64,000 nt of DNA from positions 64,001 through 128,000 of the IMG/VR virus record IMGVR_UViG_3300047160_005727. One strand, given 5' to 3'. The translations under genes and the position numbers were made by a program. The number at the start of each line of letters is the position of its first letter. Position 1 is the stretch's first letter. Under the pieces are notes generated by a model, which searched no databases, was not told the DNA's origin, and saw nothing but the letters and a program-made list of their open reading frames with translations. The stretch comes from a virus. Shown here piece after piece: positions 32,584 to 43,583 of this stretch.

Positions 32584-35016
32584 ATGGCCTCGATCAACCC
32601 GGACTGGTACGCCGGCAACGCGACCCGAGCCTATCCGCTCGATGACGCGGCGACCGCGCGCGACGATGCCGGGAAGGAGCTGCCGTCCCAGATCCTGGTC
32701 GACTGCCGGATCAAGTTCCCCTCGAACCTGGGGCAGTATGCCTACGTCAGTGGCGTGACCGTCAGCCCGAACCTCGTCACGGTCATCATGTTGGCAACCT
32801 CCAATGCGGTTCGTATGCCCGGAGGTATACAACCCGTCAGCGCGCCTGACCAACCTCTGTGTGCTGTCTCACTGCCGATGCCGGTCGTACCCTACCGTCA
32901 CTATCCGATCCAGCCGATGGCCGATGGCGTGGGAGGCTGGCTGGTATTCGGCCGCGGGATCGATGAGTCCTATTCGGGTCGGTTCAGTACGCCCGGGCAG
33001 ACGATCTTGCTGCCACGCGTGGCTTCGGCCTACGATCCGCTGCCGATCCCGACCCTGGGCAAGCTCGGTGTGGATCCACCCCTGACTGGCGTGATCCAAC
33101 TGCTGGGAGCTACCGATCTGGAGGTAGTGCAGGACACCCGCGAGATCCCCATCAACGGCACGCCGGTCATCGTCGACGCCATCATCATCCGCCTGGTCGA
33201 CAGCTTGAACCGCAACGTCTTCAGCCTTTACACAGGTCCGTGCGGCGGCCGGCCCGAAAGCGACTCCTGCAACAAGCCGGCGGTCGAGTCGATCAACGGC
33301 GTCGTGCCTGACTGCGACGGCAACCTGACCATCAACTTCCAGGGTGTGAACGTCTACGACTATCTCAACGGCGGCGGGCAAGCTCTGGATCTTCCGCTGG
33401 GCATGGCCGAGGTCTGTCTGGGCCAGGACTATCTGCCCGACAAGGATGGGAACCTGCCCAGTGACTTTCCTGGCGACTGCCAGCCTGGGCCGCAGGGGCC
33501 GCAAGCACCGCCCGGTGGTGAGACGCCGCCTATTGTTCTGCCGCCGGGCTGCTTCCCGATCCCGTTCTGCGAGAGCTTCGACGAGCCCACGGTGCCGACG
33601 ACATGGGTCGTGCCATTTGGCCCGTTCAACCTGGACGCTGACGACTCGCCGGTCGAGCCCTGCGGTCTGACGTCTCCGGGTGGTACACCGATCAACCAGA
33701 GCTACGCCACCACACCAACACAGCTGAATGCGTCGGTCTGGAACTGCGTCTACAGCGTGCGGCCTGACAGTACATCGCCCTTGCGCTGCACGGTGCACCT
33801 CAAGCTGATGCCCGGTACCAATGTCAACGGCGGCATCATCTGGAACTACTTTCTGGCTGATCCCTGGGAAACTCCCCCGTCAATGACCTTCCTGTGGGTC
33901 GGGATCGATATGAGCCGGAACGCCCTGGGGATCGGCATCTTTAACGGCACCACTGTAGTGATGTCCGAGTGGGTCACGTTCCCGACAGGCAACGTGCCCA
34001 AGGTCGGCGAATGGTACGAGCTGAGTGTCTATGCTCTCGCTGATCCTGAGTTCTGGGCCCCACCCTACAACCTGTACCAGCAGTACATCACCCTGAGCGG
34101 GGTCACGGATACGGCGTTCCAGAAGATGACGCCGATGTTCAAGTTCGCGATGAACTCTTACGGCGGACTGGCCGGAGTCGGAGCGAACAACGCGCATACC
34201 CGGTTCAGCTGGTTCAAGCTCGAGTACATCGACGCACCGCTGGGCTGTGTTCCGCTGCCTTACTACGACACTTTCGACGGCACGATCCCGACAGCATGGA
34301 TAGCTGAGTTCGGAACCTGGGTGGTCGAGAACGATGACTCGCCGGACGAGCTTTACGGACTGAGCGCTCCAGGATCCGGCGTACCGCCGGGTGTGCAGGC
34401 CGGCTTCATCGAGACACCGCCGTTCCATCGTGGGGCCAGGACCGAGGCAACACCCGCTACCGTCCCCATCAACCGGAGCTATACCGCCATCGATCAGTCG
34501 ATGCGCAACGTGTCGATATGGGACTGCGGGTACGACTGCCGGGACGGGCTGTTCATATCGACCGCTTTCAAGATGATGCCTGGCAGCCAGATCAATGGTG
34601 GCATTGTCTTCAACTGGCTCGACAACAACCCGGACTTCAAGCGGCCGACCTACATGATGGCCACACTGGACCTCACCGGTAACCGCATAGGGATCTATTA
34701 CTACTACGGTGCTACGGCCACGATGAGCGAGTGGGTGAACCTGGAGAGCAACGTGCCCAAGGCTGGCGAGTGGTACCACATGAAGGTCCAGCTCTACCCC
34801 GACGCCGCGAATGGCGGCGCGCCCTTCTGGCTGTACCACGTCATCGTGACCGTTACTGGCGTTACGGATACAGCCTTCAAGGCGGTGTCGACTGACTTCC
34901 CGCAGGACCTTGCCTATCCCGGCAGTAAGGTCGGCCTCGGGACGACCTACGGTCATACCCGGTTCAGCTGGTTCCGGGTGGCGAGTACTGACGAACCACC
35001 ACCGGGGACACCCTAA
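32584..35016 (+). CDS. Cys-rich virion protein, paralog 3, with two tandem ConA-like domains (candidate receptor-binding protein)
   Basis: DWYAGNATRAYPL; ESINGVVPDCDGNL; a duplicated domain ending HTRFSWF at 33550-34224 and 34246-34983. Confidence 0.7.
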   Translation: MASINPDWYAGNATRAYPLDDAATARDDAGKELPSQILVDCRIKFPSNLGQYAYVSGVTVSPNLVTVIMLATSNAVRMPGGIQPVSAPDQPLCAVSLPMPVVPYRHYPIQPMADGVGGWLVFGRGIDESYSGRFSTPGQTILLPRVASAYDPLPIPTLGKLGVDPPLTGVIQLLGATDLEVVQDTREIPINGTPVIVDAIIIRLVDSLNRNVFSLYTGPCGGRPESDSCNKPAVESINGVVPDCDGNLTINFQGVNVYDYLNGGGQALDLPLGMAEVCLGQDYLPDKDGNLPSDFPGDCQPGPQGPQAPPGGETPPIVLPPGCFPIPFCESFDEPTVPTTWVVPFGPFNLDADDSPVEPCGLTSPGGTPINQSYATTPTQLNASVWNCVYSVRPDSTSPLRCTVHLKLMPGTNVNGGIIWNYFLADPWETPPSMTFLWVGIDMSRNALGIGIFNGTTVVMSEWVTFPTGNVPKVGEWYELSVYALADPEFWAPPYNLYQQYITLSGVTDTAFQKMTPMFKFAMNSYGGLAGVGANNAHTRFSWFKLEYIDAPLGCVPLPYYDTFDGTIPTAWIAEFGTWVVENDDSPDELYGLSAPGSGVPPGVQAGFIETPPFHRGARTEATPATVPINRSYTAIDQSMRNVSIWDCGYDCRDGLFISTAFKMMPGSQINGGIVFNWLDNNPDFKRPTYMMATLDLTGNRIGIYYYYGATATMSEWVNLESNVPKAGEWYHMKVQLYPDAANGGAPFWLYHVIVTVTGVTDTAFKAVSTDFPQDLAYPGSKVGLGTTYGHTRFSWFRVASTDEPPPGTP

Positions 35017-35789: not shown

Positions 35790-37242
35790 ATGCCGCTACC
35801 AGGGTTTTACAATGACAACGGAGCGCGGTCCTACCCGCTGGTGCCGTGGTCCAATGCGCTTCTGGGTGTGCCGGTGGTACCGCTTGCAACGCAGATCAGC
35901 AACTGGAACGCCACCAACGTGACTGTTACCCCAGGGCAGTGGGAAACCGAGAGCGGTGCAGGACGGGGCGGCGGTTACTGGCTGAGTACGTCGCCGTCGA
36001 CAGGCGGATCAGGGAGCGTCATCTGGCAGTTCGCTGTGGTTCCAGGCCGGCAGTACCAGGTCGCGGCGACATGGCCTGGCGACCCGAAGCAGGCGAGTAA
36101 CGCCCGCTTCACCATCATGGAGACCGAGGGCGAGGGCCAGGGCTACTTCCCGCTGGCGGAAGTTCGAGTTGACCAGCGGGTCGTACCGTCCCAGATCACG
36201 GATGCTGACAACGTCGGCTGGCTTGTCCTGGGGAACGTCACACCGATCCGCACCACCCTGCTCGTCGCCGTCAACGACGACTCCGACTTCCCGGCAGTGG
36301 GCGATGCGGTCTGGGTCGAGGACATCACGCCGCCCGATCTCTCTACCCCGGTCATGATCATGCCGCCCATGAGCACCCTGCTCGACTTTGGCTGCATGGT
36401 CGGTCTTGACGCCGAGTTTGATAGTAGCATGCATGTAGTATATCTGCATGGTATCATGCGTATCGGTGACAGGTTCTGGTTCGACTTCCGCTCGGATGCT
36501 CCTGGGCTACTGGGTCATGCATTGATATTCACCCGTACACTAGGTGACGTCGAATACACGACCGACTACGTCGAGGCGTCGCCGCTGAGTGCCCCAGCAG
36601 AGCCTTTGGATGCCCCGCAGGGCTCCCAGGGTTTGCTCTGGCAAGGCTTCCTGGTTACCGGCCTATTGGACGACCTTGCGGCCGTGATGCCCACAGACGG
36701 GGCTATGACAGCCACCACAGGCCCGCAAGTCGAGCCGGCACTGGTTCAGAACCTGGGACGTAGCTACGTCCGGACGATCAACCTGGCGAACCAGGACCGC
36801 ACCCATGCAACACCCCCGGCTGGCTGCCCCGGCAGCGACGACACAGGTGCCGACTACCCCTACGTCATCGCCGCTACCAACCTGACGGGTGATCTCCGGT
36901 TCCGGGAGGGCTACAACGTCGCGATCCGGCAGAGCGCGCGGAACAACTCCCTGACCTTCCTGTCGGTCCAAGGCGCTGGCGCTGGCGCCCCCTGCAATGA
37001 AGTGCCGGTCTATCCCGGCGAGCAGCCCCCGAGCGACAGCAGCCTGCTCACGGGCGGGCCAGCCTGCGACGAGGTTGTCAACAGCATCAACGGGCTGGCG
37101 TCCAACCTGATCTACCTCGCGGCCGGGCTAGGTGTGCTGATCACTATCCCGTCTGACGCCGCGAACACGCTCACGGTCGACATGAACCGCCACGACATGA
37201 CGGTCTGCGGCCCAGTCCAGGTTGTATTCGAGGAGCTGCCTG

Positions 37243-37250
<8 letters not shown>
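35790..37250 (+). CDS. Virion protein, paralog 5, with inserted golvesin/xanthan-lyase C-terminal-like beta-sandwich domain
   Basis: [13 protein letters not shown]; VNSING; inserted domain [20 protein letters not shown]...VDQR...GWLVLG...GDAVWVE at ~35934-36320. Confidence 0.65.
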
Positions 37251-38270
<1,020 letters not shown>

Positions 38271-38274
<4 letters not shown>

Positions 38275-38949: not shown

Positions 38950-38981
38950 GGTCGTCCCGTGTGGGGCGGCCTTTCTTTTTT
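38950..38981 (+). terminator. Intrinsic terminator
   Basis: GGTCGTCCC-GTGT-GGGGCGGCC followed by TTTCTTTTTT. Confidence 0.75.
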
Positions 38982-39478: not shown

Positions 39479-39520
39479 GGGTGGTCGCCCCGCGAGGGGC
39501 GGCCACTTCCCCTTTTTCTT
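39479..39520 (+). terminator. Intrinsic terminator
   Basis: GGGTGGTCGCCCC-GCGA-GGGGCGGCCACTT followed by a T-rich tail. Confidence 0.75.
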
Positions 39521-39536
39521 AGGCTATAGGACTGTC

Positions 39537-39767
39537 ATGAAAGACATGAATGGTAATTCATCCCGGGACCAGCACTGCTTCTGGTTGTTCCTGCTGCACT
39601 TCATCGTCGGCGCCAGCAGCTTTGGCTTCTGGTGTGACTCTCCTACCGATGTCAACCTCTGCTGGATGATCTACTGCAATGTGATGGCGATCATGATCCT
39701 CATCTACCAGGCGGTGTCGCGTGCCGCGGCAAAGCGACAGGCGAAAGAAGACGAAGCCTTCTTCTGA
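39537..39767 (+). CDS. Small two-TM membrane protein
   Basis: Two hydrophobic stretches (CFWLFLLHFIVGA; LCWMIYCNVMAIMILIY). Confidence 0.5.
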   Translation: MKDMNGNSSRDQHCFWLFLLHFIVGASSFGFWCDSPTDVNLCWMIYCNVMAIMILIYQAVSRAAAKRQAKEDEAFF

Positions 39768-39782
39768 GCCGGCTCGTCCGCT

Positions 39783-40337
39783 ATGCTGACAGGCGGAAAT
39801 ACTGGCATGGAGGACCACAGGATGCGCGCCAAGACAGCTGACACGAAAGATATCACCGAAGTCGCGGTTTCCCACGATACCACCACGGTCATCAGCGCCT
39901 CGGGTATACGCTCGATCACACTTGTGCCCACGTTCCAGCGCGGCTACGTGCCCAATGTGATCGACGGCTTCCGGTTCACGCTCCAGGTCACTGGGGCGAT
40001 CCAGATGCCGACCAAGATCTTCCGCTACCGGCTCGTGCCCACCCAGGTGAAAGCCACCACCAGCGAGCCGCCGACCGCCGTCGAACTCAAGGGTGCGTTT
40101 GATGGCGTCTGTAGCCCGGCCGATCTCGAGGACTTCCCCGAGGACTGGCCGGCCCAGAATGCCCGGCCGTCCTGGTACCGGCTCGACATGGTGGATCTCA
40201 TCGTGCGCAGCCGATCGATCGCCGACGAAGCATACAAGGCGATCATCTACGAGATCGAGCGGCTGATCGATACGCTCAACACCATGGATCAACAGGATGT
40301 AGCAGCCACGATCACCATCGGACCGGAGGTACCATGA
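39783..40337 (+). CDS. Hypothetical protein
   Basis: Strong GC3 bias; overlaps the next start (ATGA). The true start may be downstream. Confidence 0.65.
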   Translation: MLTGGNTGMEDHRMRAKTADTKDITEVAVSHDTTTVISASGIRSITLVPTFQRGYVPNVIDGFRFTLQVTGAIQMPTKIFRYRLVPTQVKATTSEPPTAVELKGAFDGVCSPADLEDFPEDWPAQNARPSWYRLDMVDLIVRSRSIADEAYKAIIYEIERLIDTLNTMDQQDVAATITIGPEVP

Positions 40338-40645
40338 TCGCCAGCAATACGCTGCGTAACATTATCACGATCGAGAACAGCACGATCGACGCCCTGGTCG
40401 TCAACGTGGCGTTCCAGCGTGAGTTTCCCTTCCTGGCTGGCCTGGTTCAGCCCAAGAAGACCAGTCGCTGCGGGCGTTGCCGCAAGAAGCAGCGGGCAAC
40501 CCTGACCGAATACCGGAATTTCAAGAACGCCGTGGCGTCCATGATCCCCCAGGACAAGATACGCTTCAAGCAATTCATGGGCTGCAAACAGGTTAGGGTA
40601 GTTCACGTCAACCCCGCCAACAAGGTCGTCGACCGGACTTTCTAG
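40334..40645 (+). CDS. Small basic CxxC protein
   Basis: 103 aa; RCGRCRKK; SD GGAGG. Confidence 0.65.
   Translation: MIASNTLRNIITIENSTIDALVVNVAFQREFPFLAGLVQPKKTSRCGRCRKKQRATLTEYRNFKNAVASMIPQDKIRFKQFMGCKQVRVVHVNPANKVVDRTF
40346..40360. promoter_or_regulatory. 15-bp palindromic site, copy 4 (AATACGCTGCGTAAC)
   Basis: Exact reverse complement of copy 1; 12 nt after ATG 40334. Confidence 0.6.
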
Positions 40646-40649
40646 CACC

Positions 40650-40680
40650 CTAAACTGCGTCCGCGTTCATGTCATACATC
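40650..40680 (+). promoter_or_regulatory. Putative promoter, copy 2 (CTAAA-N16-GTCATACA)
   Basis: Shares CATGTCATACATC exactly with copy 1; followed by a hairpin. Confidence 0.65.
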
Positions 40681-40821
40681 ATTGGAGCCACTTAGGTGGC
40701 GATCCATCGGCCCGTGCGTTAGAGTACGGAAGCTACCATGAGGTCCGGGCCGGAACGAAGCACGTTGCTACACGGGTATCACTAGGTACCCGACCCCGTG
40801 GCTGCGGCCACGGGTGTTTTT
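40681..40821 (+). ncRNA. Candidate ~140-nt structured small RNA or attenuating leader
   Basis: Lies between the promoter motif and a terminator, has no substantial ORF, and contains several consecutive hairpins. Confidence 0.55.
40795..40821 (+). terminator. Intrinsic terminator
   Basis: CCCGTGGC-TGCG-GCCACGGG followed by TGTTTTT. Confidence 0.75.
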
Positions 40822-40908
40822 ACTGTGCAGTTGCGCAGGAAGCGCTCGTGCCGGGACCTCGTCGTGTTCGAGACGGGTTCTATCCAGTTTTTAGCATGGA
40901 GCATCTGC

Positions 40909-41604
40909 ATGAAGCGACGTTTCTTCTGCACTGCGCTGGCGATGTTGGCCGCGACTGTCATCGGCATGGGATCGGTGCAAGCCGGTACCGTTGTCATGAC
41001 GGACTCGGGCAACATCGGCCAGTTCAGGGCAACCAACATGGGAGTGAGTGGGGGGACGGCAACGGTCGTCTTTGATATCCCCAACTTCACCTCCCAGTTG
41101 AACACGGTCAACGGGTTGTTCCTGGCAACACCCGAGCAGACCGCTGTTCCTGGGCCGGTCACACTGCTCGTGACCTCGACAGGGCCGGAGACCTACAACC
41201 TCAGCCTTGTGCCCTCGACGTATGAGCAGACGATCGGAGCGACCCCTGCGACCCAGGCCATTCTGGACTTCACCCTTACCAAGGGTGTAGCTCCGGATGT
41301 GTTGCCCAACTTTTTCAACATGTCAGGGGCTATCACAAGTCTGGTCACCAACAGCAACCCCAACCTCGACTTCTCGAAGTTCGAGCCGGGCGGGTTCCAG
41401 AATGTCACCCTGACCGCCACGTCGTTCCAGAACGCGGCGAGCTTCGCGGGTTTCCTTGCCACTCCTGGCGCTGTCGCTGTGGGGAACGGCTCGTTCAGCC
41501 AGTCGGCTGTGCCCGAACCGGCCTCAGCGGCCTTGTTGGGTATTGGCCTCAGCGGGATATTCGCATTGCAGCGACTGTTCCGTAGATCAGCTTGCAAGGC
41601 GTAG
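40909..41604 (+). CDS. PEP-CTERM sorting-domain surface protein
   Basis: Signal peptide MKRRFFCTALAMLAATVIGMGSVQA, a Ser/Thr/Asn-rich body, and C-terminal VPEPASAALLGIGLSGIFALQRLFRR. Confidence 0.92.
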   Translation: MKRRFFCTALAMLAATVIGMGSVQAGTVVMTDSGNIGQFRATNMGVSGGTATVVFDIPNFTSQLNTVNGLFLATPEQTAVPGPVTLLVTSTGPETYNLSLVPSTYEQTIGATPATQAILDFTLTKGVAPDVLPNFFNMSGAITSLVTNSNPNLDFSKFEPGGFQNVTLTATSFQNAASFAGFLATPGAVAVGNGSFSQSAVPEPASAALLGIGLSGIFALQRLFRRSACKA

Positions 41605-41633
41605 GGTTATCGCTAGTCACGGTAACCTCACTG

Positions 41634-41671
41634 AGCAGCCCGGTCTGGCTTCGGTCAGGCCGGGCTGTTTT
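41634..41671 (+). terminator. Intrinsic terminator
   Basis: AGCAGCCCGGTCTGGC-TTCG-GTCAGGCCGGGCTGTT followed by a T run. Confidence 0.85.
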
Positions 41672-41676
41672 ATGCG

Positions 41677-41707
41677 CTAAACTTCGGGCCTTTTCTGGTC
41701 ATATACA
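41677..41707 (+). promoter_or_regulatory. Putative promoter, copy 3 (CTAAA-N16-GTCATATA)
   Basis: Directly after the terminator; followed by a hairpin at ~41709-41737. Confidence 0.6.
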
Positions 41708-41767
41708 AGTGGACCCCGCCTATGTCGGGCGGGCCACGTTGTAAGACCGATACGGAGATCCGGACAA

Positions 41768-42075
41768 TGATGGAGTATCACTGTCTGAACGTCAGCAAGG
41801 ACGTCTACAAGCTCGAACTGTTACCCAGAGGTTGCGGCCTCTGTGAACGGTGCGGTGATCAGGAGGCTGAACGCCATGTTCAGTCAGTGATCGCCGGCGA
41901 GCAGTTTGATGAGCAGCTCTGCGACATGTGCGCAGATAAGGCCATCAAATGGAAGCCGGAGGTTGAACCGGTTCCACGGCAACGACCAGCTGCGACCAAC
42001 GTCTCCTCCCGTGTTCTCGAACGGGCAAGACGTACCGCAGACTACCGTGGTTCCTGGCGAAGCCTCGTCCGCTGA
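41768..42075 (+). CDS. Small zinc-finger protein
   Basis: CGLCERC...LCDMC motifs; start uncertain. Confidence 0.5.
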
Positions 42076-42314
42076 CCGACCCACGCGGCCGTCCGCGCCG
42101 TAGCTCACTAGCACCTTGTCTGGTGCGTGGTGCGCGCTGGCGGCTCGCGTTCCTTCCGCATACCGACCAAGAGTGACAAGACAACCCCGAGCCAGGGGCC
42201 GTCACTCCTCACTCCTTCTTGGTCGGTCGGTAGTGCAGTTTCAGAGTGACGGTCCCGAACTTCAAAGACCGACCAGTTCGTTTTGTTTTTTCTCAACCGA
42301 AAGGAAGACCGACC
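42076..42314 (+). ncRNA. Candidate structured leader/attenuator RNA
   Basis: 13-bp stem 42195-42207/42244-42256, terminator-like hairpin 42256-42291 and alternative 11-bp pairing 42162-42172/42217-42227. Confidence 0.5.
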
Positions 42315-43583
42315 ATGCCTCGCAGTTTCAATAAGTCCGGTTCGAGTTCCAAGTCCGCTTCTTCAGCACAGGAAAGACCGACCATGCCTACCAAAGGCAA
42401 AGCCGCCCCAGCCGGCAACAAAGCTGGGAAAACCGCATCGGCCGGCAAGTCCGAGAAACGCAGCAACGGTAAGGCCGCCCAGGCCGCTTCAGTCAAAGAC
42501 TCGAAGCAAAAGGGACGCATCACAAAGGGCAAGCCGGCTACCGGCGCGCCCGCTCCGGAGCAGAACGTCAACCCGACGCCTGTTCCGGATCCGGTCGTCA
42601 ACCAGACGGCCGCCCCGGAAGCCACACCGCCTGGCGATGTGGCACCTCCGGTTGAAACGCCTCCGGTGGAGGCCCCGGTTGAGGTGCCGGTTGAAACACC
42701 TCCGGTTGGAGAGCCTGTAGTCCCGACCAACGTGGACATCAAGCTCGAAGAGGTCGTCGAGGTGCCGGTCGATCCCGTCGTGATCGCGGAGCAGACCGAG
42801 GAGGAGAAGATCGCGGCAGCGGCTGACAACGTCAAGAAGACGCGTCAGCAGGCTGCGGAAGCCAAGCGGCAGGCCAAGGAGTCCGTGAAGGCCGAACGTG
42901 CTGCCAGGTTGTCCCTCGCGGGTCTCGACCCGAAGAACTGGGATGCCGATGGCACCTTCGCCCGGAACGGCAAGAAGTTCCTGGCCGGCATGATCGGCCT
43001 GGTTCGGCTTGCCGCCGAGGGGCTCTGGAAGTTCCTGGTCTTCGGCTGGGAGCGGTTCATCGGCCTGTTCGGGAAGTACCGGTGGATGGGCTATGCCGGT
43101 GTGGGTGTGGGTAGCGTCATGGCGACGGCCCTGCTGGTGTACAGCGTCATGTGGATGTACAGCCCGTACGTCCGGACCACTGAACCAGTATTCGTGGCTG
43201 ACGAGCTGTCGAACGTCCCGCCCACCAAACTGAACATCCAGGCGGGCAACCCGGATAGCATCCCCAACGGCCAGGTCCGTGAGGAAGTCATCCGGCTCGA
43301 TGGTAACTCCAAGGCCATGATGACAGCTGTCCGCGAAACGGGCACGCTGATCAGTCACACCAAGGGTGCGGCCATGTGGGTTGAGCAAGCAGGGAACGGT
43401 GATGTCTACGTTCACCTGCGGTCTCTGTCTTGGGAAAGCCATGTGCTGACCCCGGGCAAGAACCAGTTGCTCAATGCCGCCCAGACGAGCAACGGGCGGT
43501 TCAATGCCAAGTTGATCAAGGTCAACGATGCATTGAATAGCAGTGAGAGTTTCAGCTCTGGCGCGTACGTCGCCAACCGCTGA
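42315..43583 (+). CDS. Membrane protein with Lys/Ala-rich and Pro/Glu/Val-rich N-terminal regions
   Basis: SD AAAGGA, with a second in-frame ATG at 42384. Coiled coil, then TM segment GYAGVGVGSVMATALLVYSVMWMY. Confidence 0.75.
   Translation: MPRSFNKSGSSSKSASSAQERPTMPTKGKAAPAGNKAGKTASAGKSEKRSNGKAAQAASVKDSKQKGRITKGKPATGAPAPEQNVNPTPVPDPVVNQTAAPEATPPGDVAPPVETPPVEAPVEVPVETPPVGEPVVPTNVDIKLEEVVEVPVDPVVIAEQTEEEKIAAAADNVKKTRQQAAEAKRQAKESVKAERAARLSLAGLDPKNWDADGTFARNGKKFLAGMIGLVRLAAEGLWKFLVFGWERFIGLFGKYRWMGYAGVGVGSVMATALLVYSVMWMYSPYVRTTEPVFVADELSNVPPTKLNIQAGNPDSIPNGQVREEVIRLDGNSKAMMTAVRETGTLISHTKGAAMWVEQAGNGDVYVHLRSLSWESHVLTPGKNQLLNAAQTSNGRFNAKLIKVNDALNSSESFSSGAYVANR

Follow-up and report, generated by a model that had tools for sequence, protein, structure and literature searches.

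The late promoter pR' of phage lambda is followed by the terminator tR', so that a 194-nt '6S' transcript is formed, and the system works through Q antitermination. Transcripts can also be protected at their beginning, as 5'-terminal stem-loops shield bacterial and phage mRNAs from 5'-end-dependent decay, for example in the ompA leader and the T7 phi10 leader.

In phage 201phi2-1, ONT-cappable-seq detected termination sites immediately downstream of start sites, and premature termination just after promoters was mapped together with 5'UTR-derived RNAs shorter than 250 nt (PMC11512511). Eight of 11 small RNAs of this phage arose by premature termination in 5' UTRs, antitermination was suspected, and one RNA of the 201phi2-1/phiKZ type, sRNA005, was conserved across genera (PMC11512511). 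As related in the same paper, 5'UTR-derived small RNAs were also reported for phiKZ (Putzeys et al. 2024, via PMC11512511). In T4-type phages PeSLs were described, which are promoter/stem-loop cassettes with sigma-70 early promoters and with stem-loops that are terminators (PMC2839356, PMC4122927). Recombination between PeSL repeats was proposed for gain and loss of genes in these phages (PMC2839356).

We analyzed a stretch of 64,000 nucleotides, further called the window, which corresponds to bases 64001-128000 of the 141-kb IMG/VR virus record IMGVR_UViG_3300047160_005727. The record, estimated to be approximately 68% complete, has a G+C content of about 60%, and nearly all of its long ORFs lie on the + strand. 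It encodes an RNA polymerase beta-like protein (PF00562, E 1e-56). The source is an uncultured soil phage with a genome of roughly 200 kb. The subject of our analysis was the 141-nt stretch at 40681-40821, which is located upstream of a PEP-CTERM gene, as had been predicted.

A collagen-like tail-fibre gene (37222-38274) precedes this locus. Five small ORFs without a family match are placed between it and the leader, and the last of them is a 103-aa gene (40334-40645) directly upstream of the promoter motif described below. The 103-aa protein is basic, with invariant Cys46, Cys49 and His91, and belongs to no Pfam or PHROG family. In a large protein collection it has 20 homologues, all from uncultured large phages or short metagenome contigs, and the identical protein is encoded by 8 contigs. 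The gene is present with or without a PEP-CTERM cassette behind it. On the other side of the locus, the PEP-CTERM gene and its conserved ribosome-binding region (AUGGAGCAU...AUG) occupy 40896-41604 of the + strand. The gene itself (40909-41604) encodes 231 aa with a signal peptide and a PEP-CTERM anchor (PF07589, E 2.5e-4, above the cut-off). The frame is open upstream as far as a GTG within the stem of the terminator (40798-40908, 37 extra codons). Judging from the homologues and the conserved ribosome site, the true start is the ATG at 40909. The gene is followed by a terminator (41636-41667); 10 nt behind it the promoter motif recurs at 41677, so that this composite spans 41636-41703 of the + strand.

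Five nucleotides past the stop codon of the 103-aa gene we found a promoter-like motif, CTAAAC-N16-TGTCATACA (40650-40678, + strand). We observed that its general form, CTAAA-N15-18-GTCAT[AC], had 3 matches in the window (0.07 expected) and 8 matches in the 141-kb record, all of them on the + strand and none on the - strand. Two related phage genomes contained 6 further matches, and reversed-pattern controls gave 0. The sites come after stop codons or terminators and ahead of ribosome sites. A consensus scan of 39500-42500 detected no sigma-70-like promoter, and between the terminator of the leader and the ATG there was no second promoter of either the sigma-70 or the phage type. In the complete genome of a 226-kb relative, a 301-aa ORF matched the Pfam domain Sigma70_r2 above its cut-off (L019, G001:C1:20648-20791, - strand); no Sigma70_r2 match was found in the available 68% of the genome of the window phage. 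A phage sigma factor could be the source of the non-sigma-70 promoter motif.

Hairpins of unrelated sequence were present within a few bases of all distinct motif sites (15 of 15, in three phages and one metagenome contig). The 40-mers after motif sites folded with a mean of -13.9 kcal/mol, compared with -9.4 kcal/mol for random 40-mers of the genome (Mann-Whitney p = 2e-5). At our locus this position is taken by hairpin 1 (40683-40706, + strand; UGGA-GCCAC UUAG GUGGC-GA-UCCA; -11.5 kcal/mol), a stem-loop at the inferred start of the transcript. Since a hairpin follows every motif site, we regard hairpin 1 as a class-wide 5'-terminal stem-loop and not as a feature specific for this locus. By analogy with the protected leaders mentioned above, it may stabilise the RNA.

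We calculated a folding energy of -68.5 kcal/mol for the 141-nt stretch, while dinucleotide shuffles gave -50.3 +/- 3.8 kcal/mol (z = -4.75; 0 of 200 shuffles were as good). The opposite strand was less stable (z = -2.85). After removal of the terminator the remaining part, 40681-40793, was still unusually structured (z = -3.4). The hairpin arms named in the original prediction were all found in place, namely GCCAC/GTGGC (40687-91/40696-700), CGGC/GCCG (40708-11/40749-52), CCGTGC/GTACGG (40712-17/40724-29), AGCA/TGCT (40759-62/40766-69) and GGGTATC/GGTACCC (40774-80/40785-91), and so was the duplicated CACGGGT, with copies at 40771 and 40809. Two of the elements held only in part. The letters of the proposed multibranch with CCGTGC/GTACGG are present, but the minimum-energy fold prefers CGGCCCG/CGGGCCG by 6.3 kcal/mol. 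The AGCA/TGCT hairpin, which we call hairpin 3 (40759-40769, + strand; AGCA-CGU-UGCU), exists but is marginal, at -1.2 kcal/mol. Hairpin 2 (40712-40729, + strand; CCGUGC-GUUAGA-GUACGG) thus competes in the window with the more favourable pairing at 40708-40752; it is the sole leader-internal piece conserved in related PEP-CTERM leaders. Hairpin 4 (40773-40792, + strand; CGGGUAUC-ACUA-GGUACCCG) is stable, with -11.3 kcal/mol and pair probabilities of 0.98-1.0. In one fold we also saw pairing of the leader with the start codon, which was rejected as unstable across fold windows and at chance level.

The prediction that the stretch holds no substantial ORF agreed with our results, as there was no ORF of at least 30 aa inside it. 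The only ORFs were the in-frame GTG extension of the downstream gene and a 15-codon ORF (MRSGPERSTLLHGYH) at 40738-40785 of the + strand. The latter is preceded by a weak Shine-Dalgarno-like GGAAG with 5 nt spacing and has no regulatory codon run. Its stop codon lies within hairpin 4, 10 nt ahead of the terminator. Its role as a leader peptide is doubtful.

The stretch ends with an intrinsic terminator (40795-40821, + strand; -17.2 kcal/mol), which consists of an 8-bp stem with 7 G-C pairs, a C(UGCG)G tetraloop and UGUUUUU. The stem (40795-40814) and the tail (TGTTTTTACT) were found independently by a consensus scan, and the terminator sequence that had been proposed was thereby confirmed. It has the G+C-rich stem, the short loop and the adjoining U-tract on the transcribed strand that are expected of an intrinsic terminator; the reverse strand of the terminator has no T-run. 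We scanned the whole 141-kb record for perfect stems of at least 6 bp, with at least 60% G-C and a T-rich tail. The + strand had 11 such sites, and in about six of these, the terminator at 40795 included, the stem was 8 bp or longer. From approximately 13 kb before the window to 40795 the scan found no strong terminator on the + strand, only a weak 6-bp site at 38953. Therefore, by these criteria, the terminator at 40795 is the first strong stop after approximately 54 kb of co-oriented genes.

We wanted to compare this leader with leaders of related phages. Our pattern scans yielded two orthologous leaders, one in the 226-kb phage (L002) and one in a soil contig (L007), and the comparison is limited to them. 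The metagenome scan found only the soil contigs L006 and L007, which were identical in the leader and were therefore counted as one. Searches of 50,697 phage records for relatives by blastn and tblastn gave no match, as did a search of genome contigs with the alignments of the 103-aa and PEP-CTERM proteins, and further IMG/VR scans returned the L002 contig again and no other. A 161-kb phage (L009) was rejected as a source of an orthologous leader, as it has no PEP-CTERM gene and its leader matches the next unit of the window, at 41677.

The 103-aa gene of L002 and L007 is followed by the promoter motif, hairpin 1, hairpin 2, approximately 35 nt and then the ribosome site AGYATGGAGYAT with the ATG of the PEP-CTERM gene. 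The block AGYATGGAGYAT is conserved across the leaders of the window, L002 and L007, and the PEP-CTERM protein is 60% identical to its L002 and L007 homologues, with the same start position. Both promoter boxes are also conserved in L002 and L007, and the spacer between the boxes is divergent. Neither of the two relatives has a terminator between the promoter and the ATG. Since their promoter and hairpins 1 and 2 run without a terminator into the ribosome site and the ATG, we conclude that the promoter belongs to the PEP-CTERM gene. The equivalent terminator in L002 and L007 is placed after the PEP-CTERM gene, and in L009 directly after the 103-aa gene. The order of a hairpin and then a promoter behind the PEP-CTERM gene is present in L002 and L007 as well.

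The leader is approximately 228 nt long in the window and approximately 85-90 nt long in L002 and L007. Only the first 48 nt or so, that is the 5' hairpin and hairpin 2, are kept in these relatives. Conservation is thus confined to the 5' third of the element, and the remainder is absent from the relatives. In the alignment, a block of approximately 145 nt (roughly 40729-40874, + strand), in which hairpins 3 and 4, the terminator and an additional hairpin are located, stands opposite one long gap in both L002 and L007. The 15-codon ORF sits entirely in this lineage-specific block. A conserved structured RNA with covariation was not supported. Neither orthologous leader has hairpin 3, hairpin 4 or the terminator, so that these parts cannot show covariation, and hairpin 2 is the only common piece, so we found no conserved, covarying sensor domain. 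Hairpin 2, which is single-copy in each genome, has 8 bp in L002 and in L007, and its outer two pairs differ on both sides between them (U-A versus C-G). Among the three sequences, 2 of 8 pairs change on both sides and 2 of 8 on one side, which is not significant (109 of 500 shuffles).

The loop and 3' arm of hairpin 2 in L002 and L007 (GUGGAGUACGGAA) resemble the real ribosome-binding region (AUGGAGUAUCGGAA). The resembling segments are located at L002:2950-2962 and 2985-2999 and at L007:265-277 and 301-313. From the sequence, the loop in the relatives looks like a duplicated or mimicked Shine-Dalgarno on display. The hairpin 2 of the window has lost the GGAG, and its loop is GUUAGA.

Folded alone, the lineage-specific block had a z of -4.40, and it is structured beyond chance also outside the terminator (z of -3.1 to -4.4). 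Mere insertion of a terminator does not require this extra structure, which could therefore indicate a function of the block itself. At its ends the block has an inverted repeat of 23 nt, which is imperfect (40735-40757 and 40843-40865, 74% complementary). The two related phage genomes contained no DNA similar to the block, the phage's own genome has it in a single copy, and a scan of IMG/VR for both repeat cores with the appropriate spacing gave no match. A miniature inverted-repeat element was rejected as its identity, since none of these searches found another copy.

One copy of the promoter/hairpin motif stands at each end of the PEP-CTERM cassette as a whole (40650-41703), which consists of the motif, the leader, the gene and its terminator. 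In L009 the cassette is missing exactly between the motif copies (L009:2780-2970; L002:2880-3810), and the order there is the 103-aa gene, a terminator, the promoter motif and a homologue of the 41677 unit of the window. As the gap extends from motif to motif, the whole cassette is an insertion or deletion between relatives. By analogy with phage promoter repeats described before, this suggests that the cassette may be gained or lost modularly by recombination between the repeats.

Other units of the same genome, outside the window, also carry the promoter motif. At L024:1338-1497 (G000 33338-33497) the motif is followed by approximately 90 nt and a terminator-like hairpin, CGTGGGG...CCCCACG, with an interrupted U-tail; behind the hairpin are GGAGGAG and the ATG of a 143-aa gene, a layout like that of the PEP-CTERM leader. 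At L024:657-1323 (G000 32656-33323) the motif precedes approximately 380 nt without a convincing ORF and a strong terminator. This stretch folded with a z of -2.95 and had no Rfam or tRNA match. A second non-coding stretch lies behind it and ends in an A-run/T-run hairpin; neither of the two is similar to the PEP-CTERM leader element. Kinship of the leader with these tandem non-coding RNAs (G000 32.7-33.3 kb) was considered and rejected, as the local alignment score was reached by 132 of 500 shuffles. At L024:1926-2046 (G000 33925-34045) we observed approximately six tandem units of about 10 nt, GCAAGCGACW and variants, enclosed by an inverted repeat of about 15 nt (GGATGTAACGGTTGC / GCAACCGTTACATCC), with T-runs and a copy of the promoter motif behind them.

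On balance we think it probable, if by a modest measure, that the locus is the 5' leader of the PEP-CTERM gene, in which a lineage-specific premature terminator acts as an insulator and throttle and releases a 5'UTR-derived RNA of approximately 140 nt. This reading is drawn from sequence comparison and predicted folds. In silico the locus has the geometry of a 5'UTR-derived short RNA, with the promoter motif reaching to 40678 and the terminator to 40821, in front of an ATG at 40909. The phage-class promoter at 40650-40678 would start an RNA at about 40681-40684, which would open with its 5'-terminal hairpin and continue with the second hairpin common to related phages. In the lineage of the window phage alone approximately 145 nt appear to have been added to the leader, with two more hairpins and the strong terminator at 40795-40821. 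Provided that the divergent polymerase of the phage obeys hairpin-plus-U terminators, most transcripts from the cassette promoter would stop at 40821, and so would read-through from the long upstream block of structural genes. This would yield a stable RNA of about 140 nt derived from the 5'UTR and leave only the read-through fraction for the PEP-CTERM gene. The terminator would thus work in cis, both as an insulator and as a throttle. The PEP-CTERM ORF is intact and has retained the signal peptide and the anchor, and the intact ORF argues for some read-through past 40821. We are probably dealing with a short by-product RNA and throttling of a gene rather than with a conserved new RNA family.

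The original prediction had offered two roles for the element, a small RNA with its own promoter and terminator, or an attenuator or riboswitch. The former stands as far as anatomy is concerned, since we found the promoter-like motif, the structured non-coding body and the terminator; the element is, however, not conserved as a unit. The anatomy of an attenuator within a leader fits as well, whereas the riboswitch is left without an Rfam match or a conserved sensor. Taken together, a regulated checkpoint, at which antitermination or translation of the leader ORF permits passage, or a trans-acting RNA of 140 nt, is in our opinion unlikely. In a regulated attenuator the stop at 40821 would be lifted under certain conditions, which would make the PEP-CTERM gene conditional or set its timing. 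Candidates for such a switch would be an antitermination factor of the phage, binding of a ligand or protein to the leader, and a ribosome that translates the 15-codon ORF. The terminator separates the gene from its only recognisable promoter, which is odd unless the terminator is regulated, and the authors of the 201phi2-1 study took promoter-proximal terminators as hints of antitermination (PMC11512511). The particular switch that had been predicted, pairing of CACGGG with CCCGUG, was rejected on energy. The fold in which we forced it had -55.7 kcal/mol against the minimum of -68.5 kcal/mol, that is 12.8 kcal/mol worse, and at equilibrium the terminator pairs formed with a probability close to 1 (0.92-1.0). 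Complements of the terminator arm within the upstream 114 nt are not rare, occurring in approximately 6% of mononucleotide shuffles, and we found no antiterminator fold that would exclude the terminator and be similarly stable. In nascent RNA that does not yet include the 3' arm of the terminator, the pairing GCUAC:GUGGC can lengthen hairpin 4 (-17.2 kcal/mol) and sequester part of the 5' arm of the terminator, yet at equilibrium the complete terminator is far more favourable. Similarly, a ribosome stopping at the end of the 15-codon ORF would cover the 5' arm of the terminator, and a stop codon 10 nt ahead of the terminator is the geometry of translation-coupled read-through, but the ribosome site of this ORF is weak, a regulatory codon run is lacking and no antiterminator gene was identified. 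As to a sensor, Rfam gave no match at the gathering score in the whole window, so that no known riboswitch or leader family was detected, c-di-GMP riboswitches, which had been suggested, included. With E up to 10 in 40400-41100 only COG3610-DE appeared, with 15.4 bits against a gathering score of 73.5 bits, which is chance. ARAGORN detected no tRNA or tmRNA. The whole putative sensor is absent in the relatives, which leaves no conserved aptamer. Considering these results, a regulated attenuator by itself seems rather unlikely.

A free-standing phage sRNA would act in trans, its approximately 140 nt pairing with host or phage mRNAs or binding a protein, and the gene downstream would be incidental. 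An abundant and stable RNA is favoured by the promoter-like motif, the stable 5' hairpin, the structured body and the strong terminator. In silico the element is an independent unit with its own promoter and terminator, and the genome has other promoter-to-terminator non-coding units under the same motif. We nevertheless consider this quite unlikely, a shade more so than the attenuator, because the two relatives with the same gene pair do not share the element as a whole, and nearly all bases of the element are paired, so there is no obvious single-stranded seed. Moreover, the best complementarity to the start region of the PEP-CTERM gene was 8 bp, which was equalled by 473 of 1000 shuffles, and the element is single-copy and unrelated to the tandem non-coding RNAs of the genome (132 of 500 shuffles). 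Finally, the block may be an inert relic of a recent insertion, for example a miniature inverted-repeat element or what is left of a deleted gene and its terminator, without any selected role and with a structure that is a by-product of its origin. Its lineage specificity and the inverted repeat at its ends would agree with this, as would the indel-prone nature of the region, where L009 lacks the whole PEP-CTERM cassette between two promoter copies. By our own estimate, however, an inverted repeat of this quality is hardly above what chance would give in 350 nt of GC-rich DNA. No second copy was found in the phage's own genome, in the two related genomes or, by a terminal-repeat pattern, in IMG/VR, and the terminator is intact and canonical. 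An inert relic is, in our view, improbable.

For the present, the locus is an ordinary-looking leader with a terminator, and its main use is in annotating transcription units of this uncultured phage group. Read as a throttled leader, it would illustrate how a large soil phage wires an accessory cassette for a surface protein, with a phage-class promoter, a protective 5' hairpin and a newly acquired leader terminator. If the short RNA or the read-through were regulated, this would be a young and datable case of the birth of an attenuator or of a 5'UTR-derived sRNA by insertion of a terminator block. If the checkpoint were real, a host-envelope (exosortase-sorted) protein would be made only at a set stage. 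Either the checkpoint or the trans-acting RNA would represent a lineage-specific riboregulator without a catalogued family, recently born by insertion into a leader.

When compared with pR' and tR' of lambda, the leader has the same short terminated transcript after a promoter, and what is served lies past the terminator. In our phage this is a single accessory gene instead of a late operon, and its promoter differs from the sigma-70 type; neither a gene like Q nor a Q-binding element or a promoter-proximal pause signal was identified. The ompA and T7 phi10 leaders share with our phages a hairpin a few nucleotides from the transcript start at all 15 sites, although the phage start sites are inferred from the motif and the stabilising effect is putative. 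Like the PeSLs, the repeated composite of promoter and stem-loop flanks indel-prone accessory genes, and the PEP-CTERM cassette is bounded by two motif copies and absent in L009 exactly between them. It differs from PeSLs in its motif, which is CTAAA-N15-18-GTCAT[AC] and not the sigma-70 early consensus, and in its stem-loops, which follow the promoter and have no U-tracts; recombination between the copies is putative here.

The phages 201phi2-1 and phiKZ are, like ours, large phages with their own RNA polymerase, in which transcription stops shortly after the promoter and ahead of the coding sequence, and the product is a structured RNA shorter than 250 nt. Their RNAs were mapped experimentally, whereas our leader RNA is predicted, and the promoter motif is different. 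Moreover, sRNA005 is conserved across genera, while in our leader conservation is limited to the first 48 nt or so. In summary, when the RNAs are compared by description and not by sequence, the predicted leader RNA of the PEP-CTERM gene matches the class of 5'UTR-derived short RNAs of 201phi2-1 and phiKZ.
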